A stretch of DNA of 64,000 bases from Clostridia bacterium DTU025 (GCA_001513145.1 LFSP01000037.1:3163-67162), one strand, 5' to 3'; shown: positions 9,145 through 35,061, numbered from the stretch's first letter. Made by a program: numbers and translations. Notes: a model not told the origin generated them from the sequence alone.

Positions 9145-9199
9145 TGTGTAATTCATAGTAGTGTGTGCCTGGAAACGGCGAGCGAGGAGGGAAGGGATC

Positions 9200-9508
9200 T
9201 TGAGAATTAAGGAGCACCCGATCCTTGAATTTCCTACAGGTAAGGAGGTTAAGTTCACTTTCGACGGTCAAGAGATGACCGGCATCGAGGGCGAGCCCAT
9301 AGCGGCAGCTCTACATGCAGCAGGCGTGAGAGTCCTCCGGCACAGTCCTCGTCTGGGCCGTGCGCGGGGGTTTTTCTGCGCCATAGGCACCTGTTCGTCG
9401 TGTCTGATGACTGTCGACGGAGTTCCCAACGTGCGAGTGTGCATCGAGCCCCTGAAGGAGGGCATGGTGGTGCAAACCCAAAAAGGCCACGGAGTTCTGC
9501 CGGTGTAG
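9200..9508 (+). CDS. 2Fe-2S cluster-binding small subunit (HcnA / sarcosine-oxidase-alpha N-terminal type)
   Basis: FDGQEMTGIEGEPIAAALHAAGVRVLRHS...FCAIGTCSSCLMTVDGVPNVRVC. TTG 9200 follows a GGAGGG RBS (ORF track starts at 9161). Confidence 0.7.
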   Translation: MRIKEHPILEFPTGKEVKFTFDGQEMTGIEGEPIAAALHAAGVRVLRHSPRLGRARGFFCAIGTCSSCLMTVDGVPNVRVCIEPLKEGMVVQTQKGHGVLPV

Positions 9509-9535
9509 CCGGCGATCGAGGCGGCAATAGGGACG

Positions 9536-10636
9536 GTGACTCAGTTGAGAGAGGTTGACATCGTTGTGGTGGGTGCCGGGCCCGCGGGGTTGGCCGCAGC
9601 GCTCGCGTGCGGCCGGGCTGGCGCTGAGACCCTACTGGTTGACTTCATGGACGCCCCAGGCGGGCAGCTCATCAAGCAGACCCACAAGTTCTTCGGATCC
9701 GAACGCCAGTACGCTGGCACTCGCGGGGTCCAGATTCCTGAGATCTTCTTCAAAGAGCTTTCAGAGATGCCCAACGTCAAGATGATGTGGGGCACCAACG
9801 CCGCCGGCTATTACGAGGACGGGACTTTAGCTCTTGAGGACGGCCAGCGCTTCTTCAAGGTCAAGCCCAAGAGGGTTATCCTGGCCACAGGCGCGGCCGA
9901 GAAGTCCCTTGCCTTCGAGAACAACGACCTGCCCGGTGTGTACGGCGCCGGCGCCGTACAGACACTCATGAACGTGCACGGCGTGGAGCCCGGCAAGCGC
10001 GTGCTCATGGTCGGCTCGGGCAACATCGGCCTCATCGTCAGCTACCAGTTGCTTCAGGCAGGCGTTCATGTGCAGTGTGTGGTGGAAGCGGCGCCCAAGA
10101 TCGGCGGCTACCTTGTGCACGCGGCGAAGCTGCGCAGGGCCGGAGTGCCGATACTAACCTCCCACACCATACTCAGGGCTGCGGGCAAGGACTGCGTTGA
10201 GGGCGCCGACATAGCCAAAGTGGATGCGAACTGGCAGCCTGTGCCAGGCACCGAGAGGCGCATCGACTGCGACGTCATATGCCTCGCTGTGGGGCTGACG
10301 CCGCTGGTGGACGTGCTGTGGCAGGCAGGCTGCGAGATGGTATACGTGCCGGCCTTGGGTGGGCACGTCCCGCTGAGAGACCACTCGATGAGGACGTCCA
10401 ACCCGCGGATATACGTGGCAGGCGACGCCGGCGGCGTGGAGGAGGCCAGCTCCGCCATGATCACCGGCGAGATCGCGGGGATCAGCGCTGCCGCGTCCAT
10501 CGGCATGATGCCCGCAGGGGCCCAGGAGAGGCTGAACCAGCTCATCGCCGACCTGGCCGCCATAAGATCCGGCCCCACGGGCGAGAAGATCTGCTACGGC
10601 ATCAGCTGTGCTACAGTCAGGGGAGGTGCATGGTAA
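9536..10636 (+). CDS. NAD(P)/FAD-dependent pyridine nucleotide-disulfide-type oxidoreductase subunit (OoxA/LhpE-like)
   Basis: Dinucleotide fold VVVGAGPAGLAAALACGRAG, a second Rossmann motif MVGSGNIGL, and C-terminal YVAGDAGG. Confidence 0.8.
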   Translation: MTQLREVDIVVVGAGPAGLAAALACGRAGAETLLVDFMDAPGGQLIKQTHKFFGSERQYAGTRGVQIPEIFFKELSEMPNVKMMWGTNAAGYYEDGTLALEDGQRFFKVKPKRVILATGAAEKSLAFENNDLPGVYGAGAVQTLMNVHGVEPGKRVLMVGSGNIGLIVSYQLLQAGVHVQCVVEAAPKIGGYLVHAAKLRRAGVPILTSHTILRAAGKDCVEGADIAKVDANWQPVPGTERRIDCDVICLAVGLTPLVDVLWQAGCEMVYVPALGGHVPLRDHSMRTSNPRIYVAGDAGGVEEASSAMITGEIAGISAAASIGMMPAGAQERLNQLIADLAAIRSGPTGEKICYGISCATVRGGAW

Positions 10637-10929
10637 TGCCGGAGAATCCGCGACCTGACGACAACACCATCATCTGCCGTTGCGAGGATATCACCCTGGG
10701 GGAGATCCGAGCTCTGATCGCCCAGGGTTACACCACTATCGACGAGATCAAGCGCGTGTCAAGGGCGGGCATGGGGCAGTGCCAGGGCAGAACCTGCCGT
10801 CAGCTGATAGCCAGAGAGATCGCGCAGGCACTGGGCATTACCGTGGAACAGGTGGAGCTTCCTCAGTTCAGGCCTCCGACGAGGCCGATTGTCCTGTCCA
10901 CGATAGTGGAGGGCGAAGGCAATGAGTGA
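10630..10929 (+). CDS. BFD-like (2Fe-2S)-binding domain protein
   Basis: IICRCEDITLGEIRALIAQGYTTIDEIKRVSRAGMGQCQGRTC. ATG 10630 overlaps the upstream stop. Confidence 0.75.
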   Translation: MVMPENPRPDDNTIICRCEDITLGEIRALIAQGYTTIDEIKRVSRAGMGQCQGRTCRQLIAREIAQALGITVEQVELPQFRPPTRPIVLSTIVEGEGNE

Positions 10930-12073
10930 GTACAGCGCAGATGTGGTCGTCATCGGAGGCGGAGTAGTCGGATGCGCCGTGGCGTTCGAGCTGGCGCAGC
11001 GCGGCTGCACCAACGTGATCGTGGTTGAGCGTGGCACGCTGGCGTGCGGGTCGACGGGCCGGTGCGGCGCCGGAGTGAGGCAGCAGTTCGGCACCGAGCT
11101 CAACTGCGTGCTGGCCAGGGAATCCGTGCGCATCTTCGAGAAGATGGACGAGTACCTGGACTACGAGCCAGGCGTGGAGTTCAGGCAGAGCGGCTACCTG
11201 ATACTGGCTTTCAGCGACAAGCAGTGGGACCAGTTCAAGAAGAACGTCGCCCTGCAGCGCAGCCTCGGCATCGACGTGAAGATGCTCACGGTGGATGAAG
11301 CCCTGGAGATCGTCCCGTTCCTCAACACCGAGGGCATGGTCGGGGCCACCTTCTGCAACACAGACGGGTTCGCCAACCCGTTCCATACCACCTTCGCGTA
11401 CGGCCAGGCCGCGAAGAGGCTTGGCGTTCGCATCATGACCCACACCACGGTTACAGGCATCGAGGTGGAGAACGACAGGATAAAGGCCGTGGTGACTGAC
11501 AAGGGCAAGATCGCCACCGACACGGTGGTGAACTGCGCAGGAGCTTACTCCGGCGACATCGCCAAGATGGCCGGCATCGACCTGCCGGTGTGGGGCGAGA
11601 GGCACCAGATCCTTGTTACGGAGCCTGTGGAGCCCCTGATGGGACCGATGGTGATATCGTTCCATCACGACTTCTACTTCCAGCAGTCGGTGCACGGAAG
11701 CTTCCTGGGCGGGATCGGCCTGCCGGAACCGAAGGGCTACAACATCATGTCGACGGTGGAGTTCCTGGAGAGGATGGCCGCCACGCTCAAGCAGCTGCTG
11801 CCGCCCTTGACTCAGTTGAGGGTGGTGAGGCAGTGGGCAGGGCTGTACGACAGGTCGCCTGATGCCCAGCCCATCCTCGGCGAGTGCCCGCCTGTGGAGA
11901 AGTTCTACAACGCCAACGGCTTCTCCGGCCACGGATTCATGGTCGCCCCCATCGTGGGTGTGCTCCTGGCGGAGCTTATCACCACTGGCAAGACCTCCAT
12001 CGACATCAGCAAGCTGGACATGGGCAGGTTCGCCCGCGGTGAGCTGGTGTTTGAGCCTTCCGTGGTGGGCTAA
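10922..12073 (+). CDS. FAD-dependent oxidoreductase, sarcosine/proline/opine dehydrogenase beta-subunit type (DAO family)
   Basis: VVVIGGGVVGCAVAFELAQRG N-terminal FAD fold and C-terminal NGFSGHGFMVAPIVG. Overlaps the upstream stop. Confidence 0.85.
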   Translation: MSEYSADVVVIGGGVVGCAVAFELAQRGCTNVIVVERGTLACGSTGRCGAGVRQQFGTELNCVLARESVRIFEKMDEYLDYEPGVEFRQSGYLILAFSDKQWDQFKKNVALQRSLGIDVKMLTVDEALEIVPFLNTEGMVGATFCNTDGFANPFHTTFAYGQAAKRLGVRIMTHTTVTGIEVENDRIKAVVTDKGKIATDTVVNCAGAYSGDIAKMAGIDLPVWGERHQILVTEPVEPLMGPMVISFHHDFYFQQSVHGSFLGGIGLPEPKGYNIMSTVEFLERMAATLKQLLPPLTQLRVVRQWAGLYDRSPDAQPILGECPPVEKFYNANGFSGHGFMVAPIVGVLLAELITTGKTSIDISKLDMGRFARGELVFEPSVVG

Positions 12074-12178: not shown

Positions 12179-12877
12179 ATGCTGGAGTACTTCCGCGCTG
12201 GTGGGCCAGTGATGTACCCGATACTGATCTGTTCAGTAGTGGGTCTGGCCATAGCTCTGCAAAAGTTCGTGCAACTGGTTTTTCTATCCTCGAACACTGA
12301 TCAGCTCATGCGCACGGTTAAGCTCCACCTGGCACACAACCATCATGCAGAAGCGCTGCACGCAGCGCAGTCGGCCCGCGGTCCCATCGCAGGTCTGGCT
12401 GTCGCTGCGTGTTTGGCGTACGGGAAGACCAAGAGCCAGGTACAAGAGGCGGTGGAGCTTGCCGGCAGAGAGCAACTTCACATCCTTGAACGCAGGATGA
12501 CCGTCCTGGACGGCATAGTGACCCTGGCACCCCTGCTCGGGCTGCTCGGCACGGTGACTGGCCTGATCAGGAGCTTCAACGTGATGAGCGCTTTCGGCGG
12601 ACTCACCACCCCGGCCCAGCTGTCCGGCGGGATAGCTGAGGCCATGATCACCACAGCTGCCGGTCTGATCGTGGCGGCTCCGCTCATGCTTGCCTACCTG
12701 TGGCTGTCAAACATGATCGATGAAAAGGTGGCCGAGATGGATGCCTGTGCCGCGGAACTGATCGAGGCAGCCGCCGCGCCAATTGCCCCTGCGGCTCCGG
12801 CGACTCCGACTGCACCGGGACCGGGTATGGGGTCGGCCGACGCGAGGGGGACAGGCAATGTTTTCCCAGTATCGTAG
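12179..12877 (+). CDS. exbB: MotA/TolQ/ExbB family proton channel protein
   Basis: GGPVMYPILICSVVGLAIAL...LAPLLGLLGTVTGLIRSF...GGIAEAMITTAAGLIVAAPLMLAY. AAGGAGG RBS. Confidence 0.85.
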   Translation: MLEYFRAGGPVMYPILICSVVGLAIALQKFVQLVFLSSNTDQLMRTVKLHLAHNHHAEALHAAQSARGPIAGLAVAACLAYGKTKSQVQEAVELAGREQLHILERRMTVLDGIVTLAPLLGLLGTVTGLIRSFNVMSAFGGLTTPAQLSGGIAEAMITTAAGLIVAAPLMLAYLWLSNMIDEKVAEMDACAAELIEAAAAPIAPAAPATPTAPGPGMGSADARGTGNVFPVS

Positions 12878-13283
12878 ACGCCACCGCACGCGGGTAGAAC
12901 TGACCCCGATGATCGACATCATGTTCTACCTGGTGATCTTCTTCATGATCTTCGGCACCTTCAGGACAGAGACCGCGGGAGTGCCGCTGGAGCTGCCACG
13001 GGCCGCCACTGCGCAGGACCTGGCCCGGGACCACCTGGTGATCACCGTGGACGGCCAAGGCAGAATCTTCTACGAGGGCCGCGTGATGACGGATTCCGAT
13101 CTCACCCGGACGCTCTTGCCCATCCTCAGGTCGACGCCTGACAGGGTTGTCATAATCAAGGCTGACCGGTCCATCAGCTACGAGAGGCTGGTTCAGACCA
13201 TCGACGCGATCAGAATGGCTGGTGGTGCAAGACTGGCGCTGGCGGTTGAGAGAGCCACCAGGGCTGGCGGTGTCACACCATGA
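12858..13283 (+). CDS. exbD: ExbD/TolR family biopolymer transport protein
   Basis: [20 protein letters not shown] with the conserved TM Asp. Periplasmic domain [26 protein letters not shown]. Overlaps the exbB end. Confidence 0.85.
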
Positions 13284-14335
13284 TGCGACGGAGGCCGACA
13301 CGGCGTCGGGCGCGGGCACAAGACGAGTGGATCAGTTGGACCATATCCATTGCAGTCCATGTGCTGATCCTCTTGCTGGTGCCCATCAGCATTGAGCCGG
13401 TGTTCGACGTATATCCCCTTGACTTCGCTGGCGTAGTGGAGATCGCGCCGCTCCAGGCTGCGCCTGCGTCACCCTCTCCTGCGCCAGGCGTGCAGATGGC
13501 GCCGCAGGAGACGAGGCCTACCACGGTGGCGCAGCAGCCCGCCCCTAAGCCTGAGCCGCAGCCTGAGCCCAAGCCTGAGCCGGTGGTGACGACGCCTCCG
13601 CAGCCTCAGCCCCAGGTGGTGGAGCTGAAACCAGAGCCGGAGCCAGAACCAGAGCCGGAGCCCGAGCCTGTGCCCGAGCCGGAACCGGAACCGGAGCCCC
13701 AGCGGGAACCTGAGCCCGAGGTGACGCCGGTGGAGCCGGTGGAGGAGGCGGTATCCGAGGACACGTTGCTCACGAGCCCGCAGGGGGAGATCCCCATCGA
13801 GACCCAGCCGGAGCCTGAGGTTGAGCCGGAGCCTGAGCGGATCCCGGCGGAGCCCGACGCGCCTGTGGCCGAGCCGACGGAGCCGGGGCCCGACCTGATG
13901 GCCATGGCCGAGCAGGTTGAGGTGACGGAGGTGTCGGAGGTGGGCGTGGGCTCGCCTGACGGCACCGGAACGCTTCCGAGGCCGGAGTTTCCCGGCACCG
14001 ACCCGACGGGCTGGAGCATGATAAGGACCACCGGAGGTAGCGACCACGGAGTGTGGATCCCCAAATCCGTGCAGAACGTGCGGGGCAGGGGGGAAGCCGT
14101 GGTGCGCGTGGAGGTAAGCGCAGACGGAGTGCTCAAGGACGCGCACCTGGTGCAGGAGCCTCCCGATTCCCCCATGACCTCAGCCATCCTCAACGCGGTC
14201 CGGTCGTCGTGGGCGTTCAACCCTGACATCACGGAGGGCCGTAAGGACTCATACTTCATCGAGTTCGTCGTGGGCTACGACGGCGGAACCGGCGAAGTGT
14301 GGGTGGAAAGCAGACGCACCTATTACGAGCAATAG
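13280..14335 (+). CDS. TonB-like energy transducer
   Basis: N-terminal TM with an SxxxH motif (SIAVH), long Pro-Glu/Pro-Lys spacer, and a C-terminal TonB_C-like region [49 protein letters not shown] overlap with exbD. Confidence 0.7.
13545..13720 (+). repeat. Imperfect tandem hexanucleotide (GAGCCN / CCNGAG) repeats encoding the (PE)n/(PK)n spacer of the TonB-like protein
   Basis: ccagagccggagccagaaccagagccggagcccgagcctgtgcccgagccggaaccggaaccggagccc read directly. Confidence 0.7.
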
Positions 14336-14359
14336 TCCTGGAACGGAGGTGGAGGTGGC

Positions 14360-16387
14360 ATGGGCGCGCACAGGTCCGTTATGACGAAGGCATGGGCGCT
14401 GGTGGTGCTGTGTTTCGCTATGGCGCTGGCGCTGATGCTCGCTGCGCCAGAAGCGGCGGCTCAGACTGCCCCTCTTTCCATAAGTAACGAGTTCATCAGC
14501 ATTTACGTGAATCCAGGGCCGGAGGAGGCAGGCCGCTTCGGTGTTGAGACCACCGGCGGCGACCCGGCCAACCCCGACGATGACAACATGCCTCTGATAT
14601 ACGGGCGTCCTATGCCATGGACGTCCTACACCACGCTACGCATCGACGGAGTCGACTGGGTGTTCGGAGGCAAGACCACGCGCAGGGCAGGAAGGACTGC
14701 CAGGTACGGCGAGGAAGTGTCCGCGCCTGCTGTGGTGGGTAACAAGATAACCACCACGTACGCGTTGGGTGATATCGTGGCCACGCAGGAGCTTTCCTTC
14801 GCCAAGAGCCCCACGACACGGTATCTCGACACCGCCAGGATCCACTACATAGTGGAGAACAGGAGCTCGTCCGTGAGGTACGTGGGCCTGAGGGTGCTCA
14901 TAGATACCATGCTCGGGCAGAACGATGGCGCGCCGCTCAGGTCTGGCGACGTGGCGGTGCTGGGCGACACGGTGTTCTCGGGCGCAGGCATGAGCGACTA
15001 CTGGCAGGCCTTCGACTCGCTGGTGGAGCCCACGCTGACTAGCCAGGGAACGTTGGTGGGGGGCGAGCTGACTCCCCCTGACTCTCTGGTGTTCTCCAAC
15101 TGGGGCACCTTCGCCGATGAGCCGTGGGATGCCACCATCGTACCCGGCAGGGAGTTCGTGCGAACCTTCGAGGCGGAGCTGGACTCCGCTGTGGCCATGT
15201 ACTGGAACCCTGTCGCGTTCGCCCCAGGTGAAGTGCGGCATTATGTTACTTACTACGGACTGGGCGGCATCACGCTGGCGCCTGGCCAGCTCACGTTGGG
15301 CATCACTGCGCCTTCGGAAGTGGCCCTGTCGGCTCAGGGCACGGCGACGTTCACCGCGGTGGCATATGTGGCCAACACCGGCGAGGGGCCGGCGCACGAC
15401 GTCACAGCGCAGGTGAGGCTGCCTGCAGGGTTCCGCCTGGCCGCTGGCCAGCAGGCCGTGAGGGCGCTGGGCGATCTGGAGCCCGGTCAGGTGGGCCAGG
15501 CGTCGTGGAAGATCAGCGTGGATCTGACGGCGTCGGGCGGCGGCGACCTGGTGGTGCAGGTGGACGCCAACAACGCAGAAGGCAACCGCGTGGTGCGAAG
15601 GGTGGATGTTCTGGGCCCGCCAAGGCTGCTGGCTTCCATCAGGCGCATCGAGGCGGTGGAGAACCGCGGCGAGCGGCTGTATCCGTGGCCGTTCAGGGCG
15701 ACGTTACGGGTGGAGAACACCGGAGGATCCGAGGCGTACTGGGTCAAGGCCAGCCTCGACTCGGCAGGTGGGTTCACCCTGGTGGGCGGCGATCACCGCC
15801 AGGTGTTCTTGGGAACGCTGGGGCCCGGCCAGTTCCAGGATGTGGTGTTCACGCTGGGAGGTGAGCCTACCCCAGGCGAGCACAGGCTGGCCATGTCGGC
15901 CCAGGCCCAGAACGTGCCTGCGTCCATCGCCAGCGCCTCTGTGCAGGTGCCCAGGCTGGTGCCGAAGGTGTGGGCGAGGGCTTCGACGGATCTGGTCACA
16001 GTCGGGGAGATCGTGCACTGCGACATCATGGTCACCAACGTGCCTGACGCCCGCAGCATCCGCTTCGACGTGGTCTACGACAACACCCTGGTTTACGCCA
16101 TGACCAGCCGCGGCACCCTCAACGTGTCAGGGGGCACCCTGGGGCGCTGGGTGGATGGAGACGCCGTCACGGTGCCCGGCAGGGTAAGGGGGATAGAGGC
16201 GGAGCTTCTGCCCAGCGACGACGGAGTGCGCTGGGGCAGCGCGGCTTCACTGTATTTCCTCGCCGCTTCCCAGGGAGTGGGAAGGGTGCATATCGAGAAC
16301 GTGGTGCTATTGAACTCCGAGGGGCGCGAGATAACCCTCGAACAGCCTCCGGCGTCGTGCACGATATCGATCGCCGGGAAGAAGTAA
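14360..16387 (+). CDS. Secreted multidomain protein of unknown function
   Basis: Sec signal peptide MTKAWALVVLCFAMALALMLAAPEAAAQ. About 300 aa of unrecognised N-terminal domain, two CARDB/NEW3-like beta-sandwich segments (...VANTGEGPAHDVTAQVRLPAGF... and ...LRVENTGGSEAYWVKASL...), and a cohesin-like C-terminus (VTNVPDARSIRFDVVYDNTLV). GGAGGTGGAGGTGG RBS lies 24 nt after the tonB-like stop. Confidence 0.6.
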   Translation: MGAHRSVMTKAWALVVLCFAMALALMLAAPEAAAQTAPLSISNEFISIYVNPGPEEAGRFGVETTGGDPANPDDDNMPLIYGRPMPWTSYTTLRIDGVDWVFGGKTTRRAGRTARYGEEVSAPAVVGNKITTTYALGDIVATQELSFAKSPTTRYLDTARIHYIVENRSSSVRYVGLRVLIDTMLGQNDGAPLRSGDVAVLGDTVFSGAGMSDYWQAFDSLVEPTLTSQGTLVGGELTPPDSLVFSNWGTFADEPWDATIVPGREFVRTFEAELDSAVAMYWNPVAFAPGEVRHYVTYYGLGGITLAPGQLTLGITAPSEVALSAQGTATFTAVAYVANTGEGPAHDVTAQVRLPAGFRLAAGQQAVRALGDLEPGQVGQASWKISVDLTASGGGDLVVQVDANNAEGNRVVRRVDVLGPPRLLASIRRIEAVENRGERLYPWPFRATLRVENTGGSEAYWVKASLDSAGGFTLVGGDHRQVFLGTLGPGQFQDVVFTLGGEPTPGEHRLAMSAQAQNVPASIASASVQVPRLVPKVWARASTDLVTVGEIVHCDIMVTNVPDARSIRFDVVYDNTLVYAMTSRGTLNVSGGTLGRWVDGDAVTVPGRVRGIEAELLPSDDGVRWGSAASLYFLAASQGVGRVHIENVVLLNSEGREITLEQPPASCTISIAGKK

Positions 16388-16418
16388 GACACACTGCAAG
16401 TCGAGGGAGGGAACCAAG

Positions 16419-18821
16419 GTGATATCTGTGTCTAAGAGGATGAGCGCAGTTCTGGCCGTCTTCCTGGCCTTCGTGATCTCCGCCCCTGCCGTAGTGGCGC
16501 AGTCCGCCGTGGTGGACGTGCCACGCGACCACTGGGCGTACGATGCGGTCAACCTCATGATCAGCAAAGGGTACATGGAAGTATACGAATCAGGCAGGTT
16601 CTCCGGGGACGATCCGGTGAGCCGTTACCTCTTGGCCTTCGTGGTGGCGCGGCTCCTGCAGGACGTGGAGGCGGGCCGCACCGCCCTGAGCGAGGACGAC
16701 ATGCGCGTGCTGCGCGAGATCTCCACGACCCTCCGCGAACAGCTGGCGGTGGTCATCAGCCGCCTGTCAGAGCTGGAACGCATGGCGGCCGATGCGTCGG
16801 CTGAGGCGATCGCCGCCAAGGACAGCGCCGCCAGGGGCGCGCTGGACACGGCTGCGAAGTACGCGGAGCTGAAGGCGGCCATCGAAAGCCAGCGGGCCGA
16901 GCTTGACGCGCAGATCAAGGTGAACGCCGAGGCTGCCGACCAGAAGCTCTCGGTTCTCTTCGGCGACTTGAGGAACCAGCACGCGGACCTTAAGGATTCG
17001 CTGGGCCAGAGCATCGCCGCGCAGCAGGAGAAGCTCGCGGCGGTGGAGGCGTCGGCCCAGTCGGCGCTGGCGGCGGAGCGTTCCGCCCGGGCGGAGCTGG
17101 AGCAGAACCTGACGCTCTCGCTGAGCTCGCTCAAGAACGAACTGTCCGCGAGGATCGATTCGGTCTCCAGGGACCAGTCCACGCTGGGCTCCACGCTGAC
17201 ATCGCAGATCGCCGCGGTTAAGGCCGACCTGGATGCGGCGAAGGTGAAGCACGGCGAGGAGCTGGGCAGTCTCCAGGTGAGAATAGACGAAGTGACGTCG
17301 GCCGTCGTGGCGAACCGCGCCTGGGCGGAAGCCGCGATACAGGACGCGGTAACCAAGGAGGCTGCGGCCAGGGCCGCGCAGGACGAGAGCCTCGACAGGC
17401 GCCTGGCGAACATTGAAGCCGGGTTGGTTAGTGCAGCGCAGGCCACGGAATCGGAGGCCGCGGCGCGCACCGTGGGGCTTGAGGCTCTGAACCAGCGGGT
17501 GTCGGCGCTGGCTGTGGACCTGAGCACCACCAAGGGGCAGACGGCAAGTCAGATGGAGCAGCTGCGGCTGGCGCTGGATGCCGAATCGGCTGAGCGGGTG
17601 GAGTCGTACGCGGCACTGCTGGAAAGGCAGGACAAGATGCAGCAGGAGCTCGACGCCAAGGTTGCAGTGGCCATGGCCGAGGCTATGGCGGCGGCCCAGG
17701 CTGCCATGGGCGCGGTGGAGCTGGAGAAGGCGGCGCGCACGGCCGACGTGGATGATCTGGGGAAGAAGATCGACGCCGTGGCGCAGCAGCAGGCCGATGC
17801 CGAACAGCGGCTACAGGCCCAGGGCCGCGCGCTGAATGACGCCAAGGCGGAGCTCTCGGCGGCGTTGGCGGAGCTTGCGGCCAGGCAGGACCAGTCGCTG
17901 CAGGCTGCGACTTCGTCGGCGGCTCTGTCGGCGGCGGCGCTGAAGGAAGCGATAGAGAAGGGCCTTGCCGACGAGAAGGCTGCCCGCGAGGCGGCGATCG
18001 CGCAGGAGGCTGCACTGAGGCAGCAGCAGATCGAGGCCGAGGCGGCGGCCAGGCAGAAGCAGGCCGGCGAGATACTGGCTCAGCTCGCGGCGACGGCGGG
18101 CAGCGTGGCGGATCTGGATCGCAAGACCGCGGACGCCGATGCGGCGATCCTGGCTGCGATGGAGCTTGAGAAGGAGAGGCTGACGAAGACCAAGGAAGAG
18201 CTCGCGCAGCTTACGGACGTAGTCAACGAGCTGGATGCGCTGCTGGCTCAGACGCAGGCACAGCTGGACGCGCTGTCAAACAAGCATACCACCGATTACA
18301 ACCAGCAGAGGCAGGCCCTGGTTGATATGAGGGTCGCCATGGACCAGCTGTCCAAGCAGTTCGACGAGAAGCTGACGGCCAACGCAGCTCAGGACGCCAG
18401 GACGGCGGCCATGGCCCTCCAGAACTCCATCAACATTGAGGAGCTGGTGGAGGCGCTCAACGAGACCAGGGACGTCCTGAACCAGACCATGGCCGCCCTG
18501 GACAGCACGGACAAGGACGTGGAGGGTCTGGAGGAGAAGTACCGCGGCCTTGAGGAGAGGCTCGCTAGCATGGAGAAGATCCTGGAAGGCAGCCTTGACG
18601 AGCTGGCTGCGAGGTTCTCGGACGAGCTCATCGCCGAGCGCTGGGAGGCTGAGGCCCGCGAGATCAAGCTGCAGCAGAGGATAGAGGACCTCGAGAGGCG
18701 CGTGGAGCAGCTGGAGGCCGGAAGGGCGTCCACCGGTTCGCCGGGAACGCTGTGGGCGCTGCTGGGAGTGGCCGCGGCGGTGGCAGGCGTTGCTCTGCTG
18801 GCGGGAGCAGGTGCTCCGTGA
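16419..18821 (+). CDS. SLH-domain protein with a very long coiled coil and a C-terminal TM anchor
   Basis: Signal peptide, then SLH motif VPRDHWAYDAVNLMISKGYMEVYESGRFSGDDPVSRYLLAFVVARLL. About 650 aa of Ala/Glu/Gln/Leu-rich heptad-like sequence. Ends with LWALLGVAAAVAGVALLAGAGAP. Confidence 0.75.
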   Translation: MISVSKRMSAVLAVFLAFVISAPAVVAQSAVVDVPRDHWAYDAVNLMISKGYMEVYESGRFSGDDPVSRYLLAFVVARLLQDVEAGRTALSEDDMRVLREISTTLREQLAVVISRLSELERMAADASAEAIAAKDSAARGALDTAAKYAELKAAIESQRAELDAQIKVNAEAADQKLSVLFGDLRNQHADLKDSLGQSIAAQQEKLAAVEASAQSALAAERSARAELEQNLTLSLSSLKNELSARIDSVSRDQSTLGSTLTSQIAAVKADLDAAKVKHGEELGSLQVRIDEVTSAVVANRAWAEAAIQDAVTKEAAARAAQDESLDRRLANIEAGLVSAAQATESEAAARTVGLEALNQRVSALAVDLSTTKGQTASQMEQLRLALDAESAERVESYAALLERQDKMQQELDAKVAVAMAEAMAAAQAAMGAVELEKAARTADVDDLGKKIDAVAQQQADAEQRLQAQGRALNDAKAELSAALAELAARQDQSLQAATSSAALSAAALKEAIEKGLADEKAAREAAIAQEAALRQQQIEAEAAARQKQAGEILAQLAATAGSVADLDRKTADADAAILAAMELEKERLTKTKEELAQLTDVVNELDALLAQTQAQLDALSNKHTTDYNQQRQALVDMRVAMDQLSKQFDEKLTANAAQDARTAAMALQNSINIEELVEALNETRDVLNQTMAALDSTDKDVEGLEEKYRGLEERLASMEKILEGSLDELAARFSDELIAERWEAEAREIKLQQRIEDLERRVEQLEAGRASTGSPGTLWALLGVAAAVAGVALLAGAGAP

Positions 18822-19094
18822 TGCCCGTGACGCCCGTGATGGGCAAGGGTTGATGGGCCGGCTCGGTGGCGGCGAGGCGGCCCGGTGGCGCGTGACCGCG
18901 CCGTCCGTGGCCGGTTGCCGGTTGCCGGTGGCACGTCGCCCTAGTCCTGGTCCTAGCCGTCGCCCGCAGCCCGTAGGGGCGAGCTGACGCGAACTGGAGT
19001 ATGACGATATGGCGAGAGGATGAGCCGGAGCTCGGCCCTTTGCAGGGCGCGGAGCTCCGGCTCCCGACGTACCCGATCCGACTCGGTATCTGCT

Positions 19095-19487
19095 TTACTT
19101 GCCCTTCACGCCTATGGCTCCGCTGGCCAGGTCGACGCTGTGGCAGTGGGTGCAGTAGCCGTTGTAGCGGGTGATGAAGTGGTTGTCCTCTCCAGCGTAG
19201 TGAGCCGCATGCATGAGCTCGGCCATGTCGCCGCGCCTCTCATGGCAGGTGTAACAGCCCGCCAGGTCCGCCAGTCTCGACGCCGAGAACCTGCCGTGAG
19301 TCTCCTGGAGCATGGTGGCCATGGTGTGATCGCGGCCGTCCTCAGTTACCCTGTGGCACGACAGGCAGCCGTCAGGGCTGACATCCTCACCGACCAGACC
19401 AGGCAGTGTGGCCTGCGCCAGCGCGATCACCGACGCCGCGACCACCACAGCGGCAATGATTCCGATGACAATCGCCAGCTTCTTCAT
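19095..19487 (-). CDS. Membrane-anchored triheme c-type cytochrome
   Basis: Three CXXCH motifs (CLSCH, CYTCH, CTHCH). N-terminal anchor MKKLAIVIGIIAAVVVAASVIALA. AGGAGG RBS before ATG 19487; the upstream part of ORF 19095-19661 is not coding-like. Confidence 0.75.
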   Translation of the reverse strand: MKKLAIVIGIIAAVVVAASVIALAQATLPGLVGEDVSPDGCLSCHRVTEDGRDHTMATMLQETHGRFSASRLADLAGCYTCHERRGDMAELMHAAHYAGEDNHFITRYNGYCTHCHSVDLASGAIGVKGK

Positions 19488-19640
19488 GATCTGACCTCCT
19501 TCAACTGCGCAGTGCATAGCGTCGTGCGCCCGTCGCATACCTTTCGACCAGGCCCCCGCCAAGTCCTGCGAACCAGTCCAGCGAGCGAATGCCGAAAGTG
19601 TCACAGCAACGTCTTCGAATACCAATTCCTGCCGCAGCCC

Positions 19641-19671
19641 TGGCTGCTCAAGCCGACCCATGGGTAGGTCG
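19641..19671. repeat. Dispersed 31-nt repeat, copy A (TGGCTGCTCAAGCCGACC-ca-TGGGT-a-GGTCG)
   Basis: 28 of 31 nt identical to 35101-35131. Contains a CGACC/GGTCG hairpin. A related unit CCGACCTAGCGGTGGGTCA follows at 19685-19703. Confidence 0.8.
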
Positions 19672-20097: not shown

Positions 20098-20292
20098 ATG
20101 TCAGAGGAGTCCAACAACGGCTTCGTCGCCGACGTCCTGGTGGTTGCCGCCCTCATGGCAAATCTCTGGCTCACTGGCCGCAGGGACCACGAGGAAGCCT
20201 CAGATGGGGTCGTCTTCGGCACCGGGGGCAGCGGGGCCGTCAGCCCCGGCATGCGCCGGGCTCCGGACCAAGAGGGAGGTGGACTTACATGA
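20098..20292 (+). CDS. Small hypothetical protein (64 aa, one hydrophobic segment), first gene of the S8 protease operon
   Basis: GGGAGG RBS 8 nt before the ATG. Stop overlaps the protease start (ATGA). Hydrophobic stretch FVADVLVVAALMANLWL. Confidence 0.4.
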   Translation: MSEESNNGFVADVLVVAALMANLWLTGRRDHEEASDGVVFGTGGSGAVSPGMRRAPDQEGGGLT

Positions 20293-21476
20293 GCTCACGG
20301 AAGCGAGGCGTGATGTTCTCGGCGTCCGGCCGGCCAAGGCGTCAGCGCATAGTGGTGTTCGACGAGAGCGTGCCTCGCGAGAGATGGGTAGAGACCTTGG
20401 CCGGCTGCAGAGGGCATATTCTACGCGAGCTGCCCTTGCTCAACGCAGTTGTCGTACTGGTTGACGAAGACGAGGAGATGGACGTCCAGCATCTGATGAA
20501 TACCCGCGCCGGCGTGGCCAGGGTCGACGACGACATCGACATCCACCTGGTTGCAGAGCGCCCTCGCCCGCGCGGCCTCCTGATGCGCCTCGCCGCCCGC
20601 GGCGGTGACGAGGTTCCATGGGGCGTCGCCCGGCTTGGCCTCGACGGGCTGCCGTACACCGGCAAAGGCGTCCGCATCGCCGTCCTCGATACCGGGATCG
20701 ACGTGAACCATCCCGACCTGCGAACAGTGTCCAGGCAGGGGTTCAGCGTGATCGATGGGAAACGGCCCACCGCCGACGACAACGGCCATGGCACCCACGT
20801 GGCTGGAACCATCGCGGCCCAGCGCAACGGCATAGGCATAGTGGGGGTGGCGCCAGGCGCTACGGTCTACTCGGTGAAGGTTCTAGACGAGAAGGGTTCC
20901 GGCAAGCTATCAGGCCTTATCGAGGGCCTCAGCTGGTGCATCGACCACCGCATACGCGTGGCGAACCTCAGCCTCAGCTCGTCCACGGAGAACCAGACGT
21001 TCCGCGACGCCATAGCCGCAGCTCGTAAGGCAGGCATAACCCTGGTCTGCGCCGCCGGCAACAACGGCCCCGGCCCCAACACGGTGGGCTACCCGGCCAA
21101 GTTCCCGGAAGCAGTGGCCGTCGCAGCCACCGACGAGAACGATGAGATCGCCACTTTCTCCGCGCGCGGCAAGGAGATCACGGTGGCCGCTCCAGGGGTG
21201 AACATCAAGTCCACCTGGCCGAAACGCCGCTACAAGACCACCTCCGGCACTTCCATGGCCTCTCCCCACGTCACCGGCGTGGTGGCCCTCATGCTGGAGG
21301 CCGACCCGTCGCTCACGCCGTCGGAGATCAAGGCCGTCCTGCAGTCGACAGCCGCCAGGCTTCCCGACCTCAAGCCCGAGGAGCAGGGCGCAGGGATGAT
21401 CAACGCGGCCTCGGCCATCGAAAGAGTGGCGCGCAAGAGGTCAACTCCGTTGAGAAAGGAAGTGGTGGGCGCATGA
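20289..21476 (+). CDS. Subtilisin-family (S8) serine protease with an I9-like propeptide and no signal peptide
   Basis: Catalytic triad contexts VAVLDTGID, HGTHVAGTIAA and SGTSMASPHVTGVVAL. N-terminal region IVVFDESV...LPLLNAVVVLV...VARVDDD resembles an inhibitor propeptide. No N-terminal hydrophobic segment. Confidence 0.9.
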   Translation: MSSRKRGVMFSASGRPRRQRIVVFDESVPRERWVETLAGCRGHILRELPLLNAVVVLVDEDEEMDVQHLMNTRAGVARVDDDIDIHLVAERPRPRGLLMRLAARGGDEVPWGVARLGLDGLPYTGKGVRIAVLDTGIDVNHPDLRTVSRQGFSVIDGKRPTADDNGHGTHVAGTIAAQRNGIGIVGVAPGATVYSVKVLDEKGSGKLSGLIEGLSWCIDHRIRVANLSLSSSTENQTFRDAIAAARKAGITLVCAAGNNGPGPNTVGYPAKFPEAVAVAATDENDEIATFSARGKEITVAAPGVNIKSTWPKRRYKTTSGTSMASPHVTGVVALMLEADPSLTPSEIKAVLQSTAARLPDLKPEEQGAGMINAASAIERVARKRSTPLRKEVVGA

Positions 21477-22051
21477 GGCTGCCGACAGACCCGGAAAGCG
21501 TCGCGCTGATCAAGGCACTGCGGCCGTTCCTGAGCGAGAAGGGCCAGAGCGCCTGCGACGACCTGCTCGGCGCTGTGAACCTCATGAGCATCTTCGAGTC
21601 GTTGGGCGAAGTTGTCCGTGGGCAGCGGGGAAGGTCAGGGGAGCGACCGTTGGCGTTCCTCTCCAACCTCGCCCACATGGAGATCGATCCCAAGATCATT
21701 GCGAAGGCGGTGGATACCATGTTGAACGTGCCCCGTGGGCCTATCGAACCTGAACCCAACACCTTTGCCGGGATCCAGGCGACTCCGATGCCGTCGCCGC
21801 CCCCTGCCGGCTCGAACTCCGACGCGGCGCCGCAGATCCCGCCGGCCCCCATGCCGCCTGGGTTCAAACCGGAGGACATCGCCAGGATGGTGCAGGGGCT
21901 GATGGCCAGAGCTGCTCAGGACCCCGCGTTCGCCGCGATGATCGGATCCATTGCGCAGGACGGAATCCGCGGCAACATGTTGCCAAAGCTCATGGAGATG
22001 CTGGGGCCAGACTTCATGCAGGGAGGAAGCAACGATGACAGGTCTCGATAG
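21473..22051 (+). CDS. Hypothetical protein (192 aa, Pro-rich centre)
   Basis: ATGA overlap with the protease stop. Coding-like composition. No family recognised. Confidence 0.5.
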   Translation: MRLPTDPESVALIKALRPFLSEKGQSACDDLLGAVNLMSIFESLGEVVRGQRGRSGERPLAFLSNLAHMEIDPKIIAKAVDTMLNVPRGPIEPEPNTFAGIQATPMPSPPPAGSNSDAAPQIPPAPMPPGFKPEDIARMVQGLMARAAQDPAFAAMIGSIAQDGIRGNMLPKLMEMLGPDFMQGGSNDDRSR

Positions 22052-33582: not shown

Positions 33583-35061
33583 ATGGAGAGATTCGATATC
33601 TTCAAGCATATCGCTGAGCGCACCGGGGGCGATGTGTACATAGGCGTGGTCGGTCCGGTGCGTACCGGCAAGTCCACCTTCATCTCGCGGTTCATGGACA
33701 TGGTGGTGCTGCCCAACATCGCAGATGCGAACGAGCGCGAACGCACCAGGGATGAGCTGCCGCAGAGCGGAGCAGGCAGAACCATCATGACCACCGAGCC
33801 GAAGTTCGTCCCGGGGGAGGCCGTGGAGATCGCCATGGCCAACAACATCAGGGCGTCGGTCAGGCTCGTGGACTGTGTGGGATACGCGGTGCCAGGGGCC
33901 CTTGGGTACGAGGAGTCAGACCTGCCCAGGATGGTGCGCACCCCGTGGTTCGAAGAGGAGATATCCTTCCAGCAGGCTGCCGAGGTGGGCACGGAGAAGG
34001 TCATCAAGGAGCACTCCACCATAGGCCTGGTGGTCACCACCGACGGCAGTATCACGGACATACCCAGGAAAGACTACGTGGAGGCGGAGCGCCGGGTCAT
34101 CTCGGAGCTGAAGGAGCTGGGCAAGCCCTTTATCGTGGTGCTGAACTCCCGGACTCCGCAGTCGGAGACCGCCACCGCGCTGGCGCAGGAGCTCACCGAC
34201 GCCTACGACGTGCCGGTGATCGCAGTGGACGTACTGAGGATGCAGGTGGACGACGTAGGCCGGGTGCTGTCGGGGGTCCTGAAGGAGTTCCCCGTGAGCG
34301 AGATAGTCGTGCGCCTGCCTGAATGGGTGATAGAGCTGCCGAAGGATCACCCTGTGAGGGAACAGTTCGTTGCGTCGGTGAAGAGCGCCGTGGCTGCTAT
34401 GAACAAGGTAAGGGACGTGCAGGACGTGCTGGCCGCTCTGGCGGCGTCGCCGAACGCCGAGAGCGCAGTCTTGCGGCTGTTGGATCTTGGCACCGGCAAG
34501 GTATCTCTGGAGGTGACGGCGCCCAGGTCGCTGTTTTACGCGGTGGTGTCGCAGCTGTCTTCGATGGAAGTGAAGGGCGACGCAGACGTCATGAAGATGG
34601 TGGCGGAGTTCGCAGCCGCCAAGCGGGAATACGAGCGGCTGGCGCCGGCGCTGGCGGCGGTGAAGGCGGTGGGCTACGGAGTGGTGATGCCCTCCCAGGA
34701 CGAGGTCACCTTCGAGGAGCCCCAGATCATCAGGCATGGCAGCAGGTGCGGAGTTCGCCTGAGGGCGACGGCCCCGTCAATCCACATGATCAGGGCCGAC
34801 ATAAAGACGGAGGTCACGCCGCTGGTGGGCACCGAGAAGCAGAGCGAGGAGTTCGCCAGGCGGATTGCGGAGGAGTTCGCGGAGGACCCCTCGAAGATCT
34901 GGCAGACGGAGTTCCTGGGCACGCCCATGCAGCAGCTCATCACCGACGGCATCAAGTCGAAGCTGGCGCGGATGCCGCACCACGCGCAGCAGCGGCTGCA
35001 GGACACCCTGCAGAAGATCGTGAACGAGGGAAGCGGCGGGCTGATCTGCATCATACTGTAA
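33583..35061 (+). CDS. spoIVA: Stage IV sporulation protein A
   Basis: MERFDIFKHIAERTGGDVYIGVVGPVRTGKSTFI (Walker A), highly conserved throughout, C-terminal ...GSGGLICIIL. Confidence 0.95.
   Translation: MERFDIFKHIAERTGGDVYIGVVGPVRTGKSTFISRFMDMVVLPNIADANERERTRDELPQSGAGRTIMTTEPKFVPGEAVEIAMANNIRASVRLVDCVGYAVPGALGYEESDLPRMVRTPWFEEEISFQQAAEVGTEKVIKEHSTIGLVVTTDGSITDIPRKDYVEAERRVISELKELGKPFIVVLNSRTPQSETATALAQELTDAYDVPVIAVDVLRMQVDDVGRVLSGVLKEFPVSEIVVRLPEWVIELPKDHPVREQFVASVKSAVAAMNKVRDVQDVLAALAASPNAESAVLRLLDLGTGKVSLEVTAPRSLFYAVVSQLSSMEVKGDADVMKMVAEFAAAKREYERLAPALAAVKAVGYGVVMPSQDEVTFEEPQIIRHGSRCGVRLRATAPSIHMIRADIKTEVTPLVGTEKQSEEFARRIAEEFAEDPSKIWQTEFLGTPMQQLITDGIKSKLARMPHHAQQRLQDTLQKIVNEGSGGLICIIL

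Follow-up and report, generated by a model that had tools for sequence, protein, structure and literature searches.

A 64,000-nucleotide stretch of DNA from Clostridia bacterium DTU025 (GCA_001513145.1, LFSP01000037.1:3163-67162; the whole stretch is called the window here) carries, between positions 12179 and 18821, a five-gene operon. Genes for ExbB, ExbD and TonB are followed in it by genes for a secreted four-domain protein (gene 4, G4) and for an SLH/coiled-coil protein ending in a hydrophobic tail (gene 5, G5). The system is real and conserved, and the best reading makes it an envelope machine of the diderm Terrabacteria akin to Tol-Pal. It is highly probable that the operon encodes a dedicated force transducer of the Ton/Tol class with an output that is not a barrel. 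The five genes, with their predicted products, are as follows.

12179-12877, + strand: gene 1, ExbB/TolQ-like proton-channel subunit, 232 aa
12858-13283, + strand: gene 2, ExbD/TolR-like subunit, 141 aa from the ATG at 12858
13280-14335, + strand: gene 3, TonB-family force transducer, 351 aa, with an N-terminal SxxxH helix, a Pro/Glu-rich linker and TonB_C
14360-16387, + strand: gene 4 (G4), secreted four-domain protein, 675 aa
16419-18821, + strand: gene 5 (G5), SLH/coiled-coil protein, 800 aa, GTG start

The five genes form one compact unit, co-oriented and tightly packed. Genes 1 and 2 (exbB and exbD) share 20 nt; the longest open reading frame (ORF) of gene 2 begins at 12783 and the ATG at 12858 is the likelier start. 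Genes 2 and 3 (exbD and tonB) share 4 nt, the start of gene 3 lying within the stop codon of gene 2 (ATGA). Gaps of 24 nt and 31 nt precede genes 4 and 5, both of which have a GGAGG-type ribosome-binding site ahead of them, and an AAGGAGG ribosome-binding site lies upstream of gene 1. Promoter and terminator scans revealed no promoter-like or terminator-like site at any of the junctions of the operon (terminator-like sites: 4 observed vs 2.8 expected), and no promoter for a sporulation sigma factor could be called by eye upstream of exbB. A single five-gene unit with overlaps, gaps of 24 and 31 nt and strong ribosome-binding sites had been proposed in an earlier note on this DNA, made from the sequence alone (the original prediction), and all its coordinates and junctions were reproduced.

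The products of genes 1 and 2 are predicted to be the ExbB and ExbD subunits of a proton-driven inner-membrane motor. Gene 1 matched the Pfam family MotA_ExbB (PF01618) with 98.4 bits (E 3e-28), and gene 2 matched ExbD (PF02472) with 96 bits, its transmembrane Asp being placed within LTPMIDIMF. The N-terminal helix of gene 3 holds SIAVH, an SxxxH motif, Pro and Glu make up 48% of its residues 61-240, and its match to the Pfam TonB_C family reached 25.4 bits against a cut-off of 24.6. Among 67 gene-3 homologues the S and the H of the motif were invariant and TonB_C was matched in 61, while the family profile retrieved structures of TonB C-terminal domains from the PDB (E 4e-12). Gene 3 thus has the make-up expected of a true TonB: a motor-docking SxxxH helix, a Pro/Glu linker that would cross the periplasm and a TonB C-terminal domain at ~residues 255-351. 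As far as sequence can tell, genes 1-3 supply every inner-membrane part of a Ton system. The original prediction had taken the motor and TonB parts as genuine on the evidence of TPMIDIM, SIAVH, the Pro/Glu spacer and a TonB_C-like end, each of which was found, together with the PF01618, PF02472 and TonB_C matches.

An attempt to place the motor as either Tol or Ton was abandoned, the signals being mixed. The top PDB matches of gene 1 were TolQ (41.5 bits) and ExbB (34.9 bits), whereas gene 2 scored 46.7 bits with ExbD vs 25.5 bits with TolR. In NCBIfam the top family was TolQ for gene 1 (76 bits vs an equivalog cut-off of 221) and TolR for gene 2 (62 bits vs an equivalog cut-off of 127).

The conservation of the operon was followed in contigs from one genome per species. 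A scan with the single G4 sequence gave no match there (the species of the window is absent from that collection), and an alignment seed was needed. Three alignment-seeded scans found G4 relatives in 419-427 species, and the best 80 of each scan were taken. Hidden Markov models (HMMs) built from the first matches were then applied to 140 distinct loci, which carry L numbers below. ExbB, ExbD and TonB stood in this order directly upstream of G4 in 106 of the 109 loci with sufficient upstream DNA. Directly downstream of G4, a tail-anchored protein was encoded in 121 of 129 loci and bore an SLH domain in 120; the eight exceptions are mostly explained by masked sequence or by an over-strict pattern. 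Of 100 loci that could be tested in full, 91 had all five genes, and in many loci neighboring genes of the operon abut or overlap, as judged by longest-ORF coordinates. The order is kept from the Halanaerobiales through the Limnochordia to the Armatimonadota and Ca. Hebobacteria, with G4 identities of 35-45%. Because the same order recurs in ~140 distinct genomes, the arrangement lies far beyond chance, and since the linkage is conserved across classes and phyla, G4 and G5 appear to be dedicated partners of the motor. The original prediction had made its reading depend on such linkage in related genomes, and in this respect it is borne out. Loci in metagenome-assembled genomes (MAGs) labeled Betaproteobacteria, Chitinophagales and Bacteroidota (L013, L042 and L070; PRJNA950955) resemble Bacillota loci, and these bins are probably mislabeled or contaminated. 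In 31 loci the operon is immediately preceded by a PHP-domain gene, which in locus L001 is 16 nt away from exbB; this gene is not in the window and may be a sixth member.

The same counts bear on the possibility that this is an ordinary Ton system serving receptors encoded elsewhere, with genes 4 and 5 as unrelated neighbors. All three of ExbB, ExbD and TonB are canonical, and tonB is often unlinked to the genes of its receptors (PMC12204202). Against this stands the five-gene order itself, kept across phyla with small gaps or overlaps. Relatives of FhuA and BtuB were detected neither in the window nor in 3.16 Mb of flanks by phmmer with the E. coli queries (E<=0.01; a single-sequence phmmer search is insensitive), so that no receptor was seen near any locus, in line with the original prediction for the surroundings of this operon. 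Moreover, Halothermothrix orenii speaks the same way: in its genome ExbB, ExbD and TonB are clustered, no TonB-dependent receptor was detected, and the authors suggested 'a different function' (PMC2626281). Altogether, an ordinary Ton system is a highly improbable explanation. The operon resembles one in having all three inner-membrane parts, with the ExbD transmembrane Asp, SxxxH, the Pro-rich linker and TonB_C; it differs in that none of the 140 loci showed a linked receptor of the 22-strand barrel type, and in that two other proteins are strictly linked.

The first of these two proteins, G4, was resolved into the following parts.

14360-14464, + strand: predicted signal peptide, ~residues 1-35, with an Ala-x-Ala type cleavage site AAAQ; helix 4-27 in the model, low confidence after it
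14465-15277, + strand: predicted N-terminal beta-supersandwich, residues 36-306 (AlphaFold2 (AF2) and Foldseek)
15290-15949, + strand: two Ig-like domains of the NEW3/CARDB type, residues 311-418 and 423-530 (Pfam and AF2)
15965-16375, + strand: predicted C-terminal cohesin, residues 536-672 (family profile vs PDB)

In the AF2 model of full-length G4 (predicted local distance difference test (pLDDT) score 88), the signal peptide is followed by an all-beta N-domain of 270 residues, a pair of Ig-like domains and the C-terminal domain. The N-domain modeled alone reached a pLDDT of 88.4 and a predicted template-modeling (TM) score, pTM, of 0.90. A Foldseek search with it returned, with E values from 2e-8 to 1e-5 and TMq of 0.44-0.64, the N-domains of GH94 phosphorylases, GH116, GH65 and cyclic glucan synthase as well as P1, a periplasmic domain of YidC. 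On the basis of the model, the N-domain is a galactose-mutarotase-like beta-supersandwich. The search with full-length G4 was uninformative, Ig-repeat proteins (integrin legs) dominating it at TM ~0.2, and the N-domain was used instead. Residues 323-405 matched NEW3/CARDB families in Pfam (NPCBM_assoc with 27.4 bits, and a weak CARDB match), and the Ig-like domains are all-beta in the model, with pLDDT ~90. In the PDB the family profile matched type II cohesins such as ScaB and SdbA, with E values between 6e-15 and 1e-4, and PF00963 is precomputed on many G4 homologues. The original prediction of a secreted protein with two CARDB-like domains and a cohesin was therefore right in these parts, and the N-terminal domain, which it had called unrecognized, now has a fold assigned by Foldseek.

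The N-domain is the most conserved part of G4. Some 50 of its residues are invariant, with Trp, Asp, Asn, Gln and Arg well represented, and such a composition would suit a glycan- or protein-binding site; the fold itself resembles that of a module binding glycans. An N-terminal strand, N-x-[FY]-I-x-I-x-V-N, is invariant in G4. Full-length relatives of G4 (650-700 aa) number in the hundreds, and an HMM of the N-domain retrieved 3279 cluster representatives among 1.84 billion proteins. Its distant relatives head PKD, PA14 or RHS/YD-repeat proteins with no motor nearby (L164, 7001-9508; L242, 6001-7983; L243, 6001-10575). The supersandwich N-domain looks like a widespread extracytoplasmic module that has no Pfam model, and only the G4 subfamily looks motor-linked. 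Some genes next to those of the distant N-domain proteins (FrhB, ATP-dependent DNA ligase, pyruvate:ferredoxin oxidoreductase) point to archaea as the source.

These domains invite a reading in which the operon is a glycan-capture or surface-layer machine: G4 would be exported to the surface of the cell or would bind a polysaccharide by its supersandwich and Ig-like domains, its cohesin serving for docking, and the motor would power uptake, release, or the assembly of a sheath or surface layer (S-layer) held by G5. The N-domain has the fold of the N-domains of the carbohydrate enzymes GH94, GH116 and GH65, and its relatives stand at the head of surface proteins of the PKD, PA14 and RHS kinds. 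NEW3/CARDB and cohesin are domains characteristic of proteins of the cell surface and the cellulosome, and S-layers are reported in Limnochordia (PMC11456536). The genomic context gives a different picture. Dockerin partners, glycoside hydrolases and sugar transporters are not among the conserved neighbors, as judged from the ten most frequent neighbor clusters, which were annotated; no outer-membrane channel is encoded; and each locus has one operon amid mostly housekeeping or sporulation genes, unlike a polysaccharide-utilization locus. A supersandwich is, moreover, also seen in periplasmic domains that are not catalytic, YidC P1 among them. We regard a glycan or surface-layer machine as quite unlikely. 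The narrower reading of a cellulosome anchor, suggested by the NCBI name of some homologues, was rejected: the cohesin (in G4) and the SLH (in G5) are on separate proteins, no dockerin was found in the five proteins and no glycoside hydrolase in the ten most frequent neighbor clusters.

The second linked protein, G5, has three parts.

16419-16658, + strand: predicted signal peptide and a single SLH domain, residues 1-80 (PF00395, 27.4 bits, residues 33-69)
16659-18749, + strand: predicted alpha-helical coiled-coil rod, ~residues 81-777
18750-18821, + strand: predicted C-terminal hydrophobic tail anchor (LWALLGVAAAVAGVALLAGAGAP) and stop codon

The SLH domain was matched in 70 of 73 G5 homologues, and H38, Y41, G51, R69 and A73 are invariant in it. 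The rod comprises ~680 proline-free residues (Ala 22%, Leu 12%, Glu 11%, Gln 8%) and matches coiled-coil families only. Homologues with an SLH share the same plan: after the signal peptide come one SLH, a coiled coil whose length varies greatly and, at the extreme C-terminus, a hydrophobic helix, in proteins of ~200-1447 aa in total. The SLH, the coiled coil and the C-terminal helix had all been named in the original prediction and are retained, given the PF00395 match, the proline-free rod and the hydrophobic C-terminus. In 60 homologues the hydrophobic run of the tail had a median length of 18 aa and was followed by 0-4 residues (median 1). The 15 residues before the run held a mean of 3.4 K/R, and 0.4 were found after it. 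Such a placing of K/R before and not after the helix is the opposite of that in a stop-transfer anchor of the inner membrane, and it gives indirect support to insertion into the outer membrane.

In Armatimonadota and Ca. Hebobacteria the fifth gene encodes a protein of 127-149 aa with a signal peptide, a short coiled coil and the same tail anchor, and with no SLH (L003, 12079-12528; L166, L168, L169, L171 and L174). This short form is homologous to the G5 of Firmicutes (hhalign probability 96%, E 2e-9). The match spans a V-x-x-E-D-[LI] stalk motif, which occurs in 36 of 73 Firmicute G5 proteins and is not present in the G5 of the window.

By its domain order G5 appears to belong to the architectural class of Omp-alpha of Thermotoga, and this tether, rather than an S-layer protein, seems its best comparison. 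Omp-alpha (OmpA1) has an SLH, a ~316-aa coiled coil and ~20 hydrophobic C-terminal residues thought to be the toga anchor (PMC3387000); it is enriched in the toga fraction and appears as fibers of 50 nm that run between wall and toga (PMC10160955). G5 is alike in its single N-terminal SLH, long coiled coil, hydrophobic C-terminus of ~20 residues and lack of a barrel. The OmpM/SlpA tethers of diderm Terrabacteria, too, combine a single SLH with a coil, and those are reported to be trimeric. The differences are that Omp-alpha is in an operon with the porin Omp-beta and no motor is mentioned (PMC10160955, PMC3387000), whereas G5 follows ExbB-ExbD-TonB-G4; that G5 ranges over ~200-1447 aa and has a form without an SLH in Armatimonadota; and that the likeness is one of architecture, homology having been compared at the SLH only.

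The tail of G5 could instead reside in the cytoplasmic membrane. The module would then be a spacer, ruler or coupler between membrane and wall, with the motor acting below the wall and an outer membrane being optional. A signal peptide with a C-terminal hydrophobic helix is indeed the textbook Sec stop-transfer topology, and the coiled coil of the Armatimonadota form, just ~60-70 residues long, suits a short inner-membrane stalk. No outer-membrane marker gene was found in the window or the flanks, and there are deep-branching Bacillota whose Gram stain is negative although they have no outer membrane (PMC11448272). However, positive charges before the helix and 0-4 residues after it make for poor retention in the inner membrane, and the similarly built Omp-alpha is found in the toga fraction (PMC10160955). 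A TonB linker of 200 residues would be needless for a partner on the same membrane, and the named carriers are in lineages reported to be diderm. An inner-membrane G5 is, in our view, unlikely.

Among the Halanaerobiales the named carriers are Halanaerobacter jeridensis, Halanaerobium congolense, Halonatronum saccharophilum and Ca. Frackibacter. A second group of carriers comprises Limnochordia and Limnochordales MAGs, Hydrogenispora, Capillibacterium and Ca. Darwinibacter, and a third Armatimonadota, Ca. Hebobacteria and UBP13; many further carriers are MAGs classified no further than 'Bacillota'. Isolates of Negativicutes, Clostridia and Bacilli were absent from the best-ranked matches, as were classical single-membrane Firmicute isolates, though genomes of the former three abound in the collections; these are ranked lists and not a census. 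L. pilosa, Geochorda and Carboxydochorda were not within the best 80 of the third scan, which was aimed at cultured Limnochordia and did find Limnochordales MAGs.

Halanaerobiales and Limnochordia make up the diderm Firmicutes found here: an outer membrane has been seen in Limnochordia by electron microscopy (PMC11456536), and one with lipopolysaccharide is described for Halanaerobiales (PMC5007114). An outer-membrane tether, OmpM, is reported in Armatimonadetes (Witwinowski preprint). As for the window itself (GC content 59-69% in 2-kb windows), its nearest G4 relatives (L004-L011; 59-62% identity) are unclassified; the literature on their UBA genus names gave no placement at class level, they may belong to the Limnochordia-related Bacillota_G, and an attempt at taxonomy by the Der GTPase was uninformative, with 50-56% identity to all kinds of Firmicutes. 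A full-length SpoIVA is encoded at 33583-35061 (three Pfam domains, 385+205+102 bits), which indicates that the window comes from an endospore-forming lineage. Spore-formers with two membranes exist. The original prediction had pictured a motor linked to wall fibers in an endospore former; the spore-former part of this picture stands with SpoIVA, and the single membrane that it implied is probably wrong, the carriers lying in diderm lineages. Judging by the named carriers, the operon is probably no peculiarity of a spore-former with one membrane, and the paradox of a motor in a Gram-positive bacterium probably dissolves.

The presence of SpoIVA in the window also touches on another reading, in which the operon is a sporulation or germination device that remodels the envelope at engulfment or at germination, as the outer spore membrane becomes that of the cell. 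Some 25 of 114 unique loci lie between dacF-spoIIAA-spoIIAB-sigF (then GNAT and PHP) and spoVAC/D/E (e.g., L044, L038, L083, L057 and L080). In H. jeridensis the operon (L001, 7623-13291) is flanked by two Gate-domain genes (possible spmA/spmB) and a wall hydrolase of the Hydrolase_2 (SleB) family. This spo-gene context is limited to one sub-clade, to which neither the window nor its closest relatives belong. Armatimonadota and Ca. Hebobacteria, moreover, are not known to sporulate and have retained the operon. A sporulation or germination device is very unlikely.

In Gracilicutes, Tol-Pal has a central part in keeping the outer membrane stable and in its constriction. The operon resembles its TolQ-TolR-TolA-TolB-Pal set in having five genes in the order of channel, stator, TonB/TolA-type transducer, secreted periplasmic protein and wall-binding protein, in the motor families PF01618 and PF02472, and in a transducer with an SxxxH helix and a C-domain of the TonB/TolA fold. 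It differs in its outputs: G4 has neither a beta-propeller nor TolB_N (AF2 model; no TolB match in Pfam or NCBIfam), and G5 has neither a lipobox nor an OmpA-like domain, with an SLH, a coiled coil and a helical tail anchor in the place of Pal. Neither ybgC nor cpoB was linked to the operon loci. The operon is not a member of the Tol-Pal family because the features of TolB and Pal are lacking. Curated Tol-Pal systems are confined to Gracilicutes (PMC12204202), TolB and Pal are reported to be absent from all diderm Terrabacteria (PMC12204202; PMC8871954), and diderm Firmicutes keep only TolQR-like genes, without tolB and pal (PMC8871954). By analogy, we infer that the operon repeats the logic and gene order of tolQ-tolR-tolA-tolB-pal with non-homologous outputs, in bacteria without Tol-Pal.

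A mechanism along these lines may be proposed. G5 would be trimeric, as single-SLH coiled-coil tethers are, its SLH would bind the cell wall and its tail would sit in the outer membrane, so that it would tether the one to the other. G4 would bind G5, perhaps by its cohesin on the conserved stalk segment, and/or a wall glycan. The TonB domain, energized by the motor, would grip and pull G4, and the force would engage, release or relocate the tether.

Several observations weigh against this proposal. The TonB-G4 and G4-G5 pairings are deduced from synteny, and the motor is not clearly Tol-like, its ExbB being closer to TolQ and its ExbD closer to ExbD. No cell-division genes were linked to the loci, and it is sporulation genes that neighbor one sub-clade. 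The fifth gene of Armatimonadota encodes no wall-binding domain; with the SLH missing there, either the tether is not the whole story or the wall is contacted via G4. The rod in the clade of the window, ~680 residues, would measure ~100 nm if straight, far longer than a normal periplasm, and the lengths of the TonB linker and of G5 are weakly correlated (rho 0.32, uncorrected for phylogeny and not monotonic). Finally, relatives of E. coli BamA, Skp, LpxA, LpxB, LpxC and LpxD were not found in the 64-kb window or in any flank.

Of tethering, a surface layer and uptake, the three roles offered by the original prediction, tethering remains the best supported. TonB-driven control of a tether between the outer membrane and the wall, drawn from the analogies above, is a reasonable possibility that falls a little short of probable. 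The further step, that the operon is the functional counterpart of Tol-Pal in diderm Terrabacteria and that control of the tether stabilizes and constricts the outer membrane, is more tentative, possible but on balance doubtful.

Other machines couple motors of this kind to unusual outputs. The Agl-Glt gliding machinery of Myxococcus combines a TolQR-like motor and the TonB-like GltG/J with envelope proteins that are not receptors. It is similar in that a Tol/Exb-type motor acts via TonB-like proteins; it differs in having many more components, including outer-membrane barrels and cytoplasmic parts, none of that kind being linked here. Force transducers with a vWA domain, encoded beside TolQR-like motors (PMC12204202), likewise pair motors of the 5:2 type with non-canonical periplasmic outputs. 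There, the vWA domain replaces the C-domain of the transducer, whereas here TonB is normal and the novelty lies in its partners; their taxa (the PVC group, Proteobacteria and Bacteroidetes) also differ from the carriers found here. These vWA systems show that motors of the 5:2 class power other machines besides Ton and Tol (Williams-Jones et al. 2025, PMC12204202). A proton motor dedicated to anti-phage defense, such as Zorya, was considered and rejected: PADLOC gave no match for genes 1-4 and just a 16-bit coiled-coil match for gene 5.

A full-text literature search found no description of the five-gene system, a search outside which subscription-only papers lie, so that a prior mention is possible. 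For openly readable full texts, the claim of an undescribed system made in the original prediction can be upheld. The nearest earlier statements are the 2009 remark on H. orenii (PMC2626281) and the 2025 survey, in which the Negativicutes were the sole diderm Firmicutes with detected Ton systems (PMC12204202). What is new is apparently the output module, G4 with G5, the kinds of motor and transducer being already known.

The operon is a candidate for the orphan ExbB, ExbD and TonB of H. orenii, which have stood without a receptor and without an explanation since 2009 (PMC2626281), if that cluster is assumed to be identical with the operon. It also offers a five-protein candidate for the missing Tol-Pal role in diderm Terrabacteria and would widen the range of outputs driven by 5:2 proton motors, G5 being a putative motor-linked relative of the Omp-alpha type of tether. 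The G4 family might serve as a marker of envelope type for uncultured Bacillota. The system bears as well on the loss of the outer membrane in Firmicutes, since the model for that loss centers on SLH-based tethers. If the proposal is true, active tethering of the outer membrane arose twice, from the same ancestral motor and with unrelated output parts, and losing the module may have been one stage on the way by which Firmicutes repeatedly lost their outer membrane.

Downstream, the unit ends at a GC-rich structured spacer (18822-19094), 273 nt between the stop codon of gene 5 and a convergent gene. Its minimum free energy is -148.7 kcal/mol (z -2.6), and it contains a perfect-looking hairpin of 18 bp at ~19020-19067 that lacks a T-run. 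The spacer probably acts as a bidirectional terminator or as a stabilizer. The convergent gene (19095-19661, - strand) encodes a small protein, anchored in the membrane, that has several CxxCH-like motifs and matches cytochrome c3/c7 weakly (E ~1e-3).

Upstream of the operon lies a compact gene set (9161-12073), the last stop codon of which is 105 nt from exbB. It comprises a small ORF (9161-9508), a pyridine-nucleotide-disulfide oxidoreductase (9536-10636), an overlapping small Cys-rich ORF and a DAO-type FAD oxidoreductase (10922-12073), and it is similar to an opine or a sarcosine/proline oxidase cluster. Farther downstream, at 20289-22051, the window encodes a subtilase (Peptidase_S8, 229 bits) with an N-terminal extension of ~120 residues, and its gene is followed, with overlapping stop and start codons, by one for a 192-aa protein without a Pfam match.

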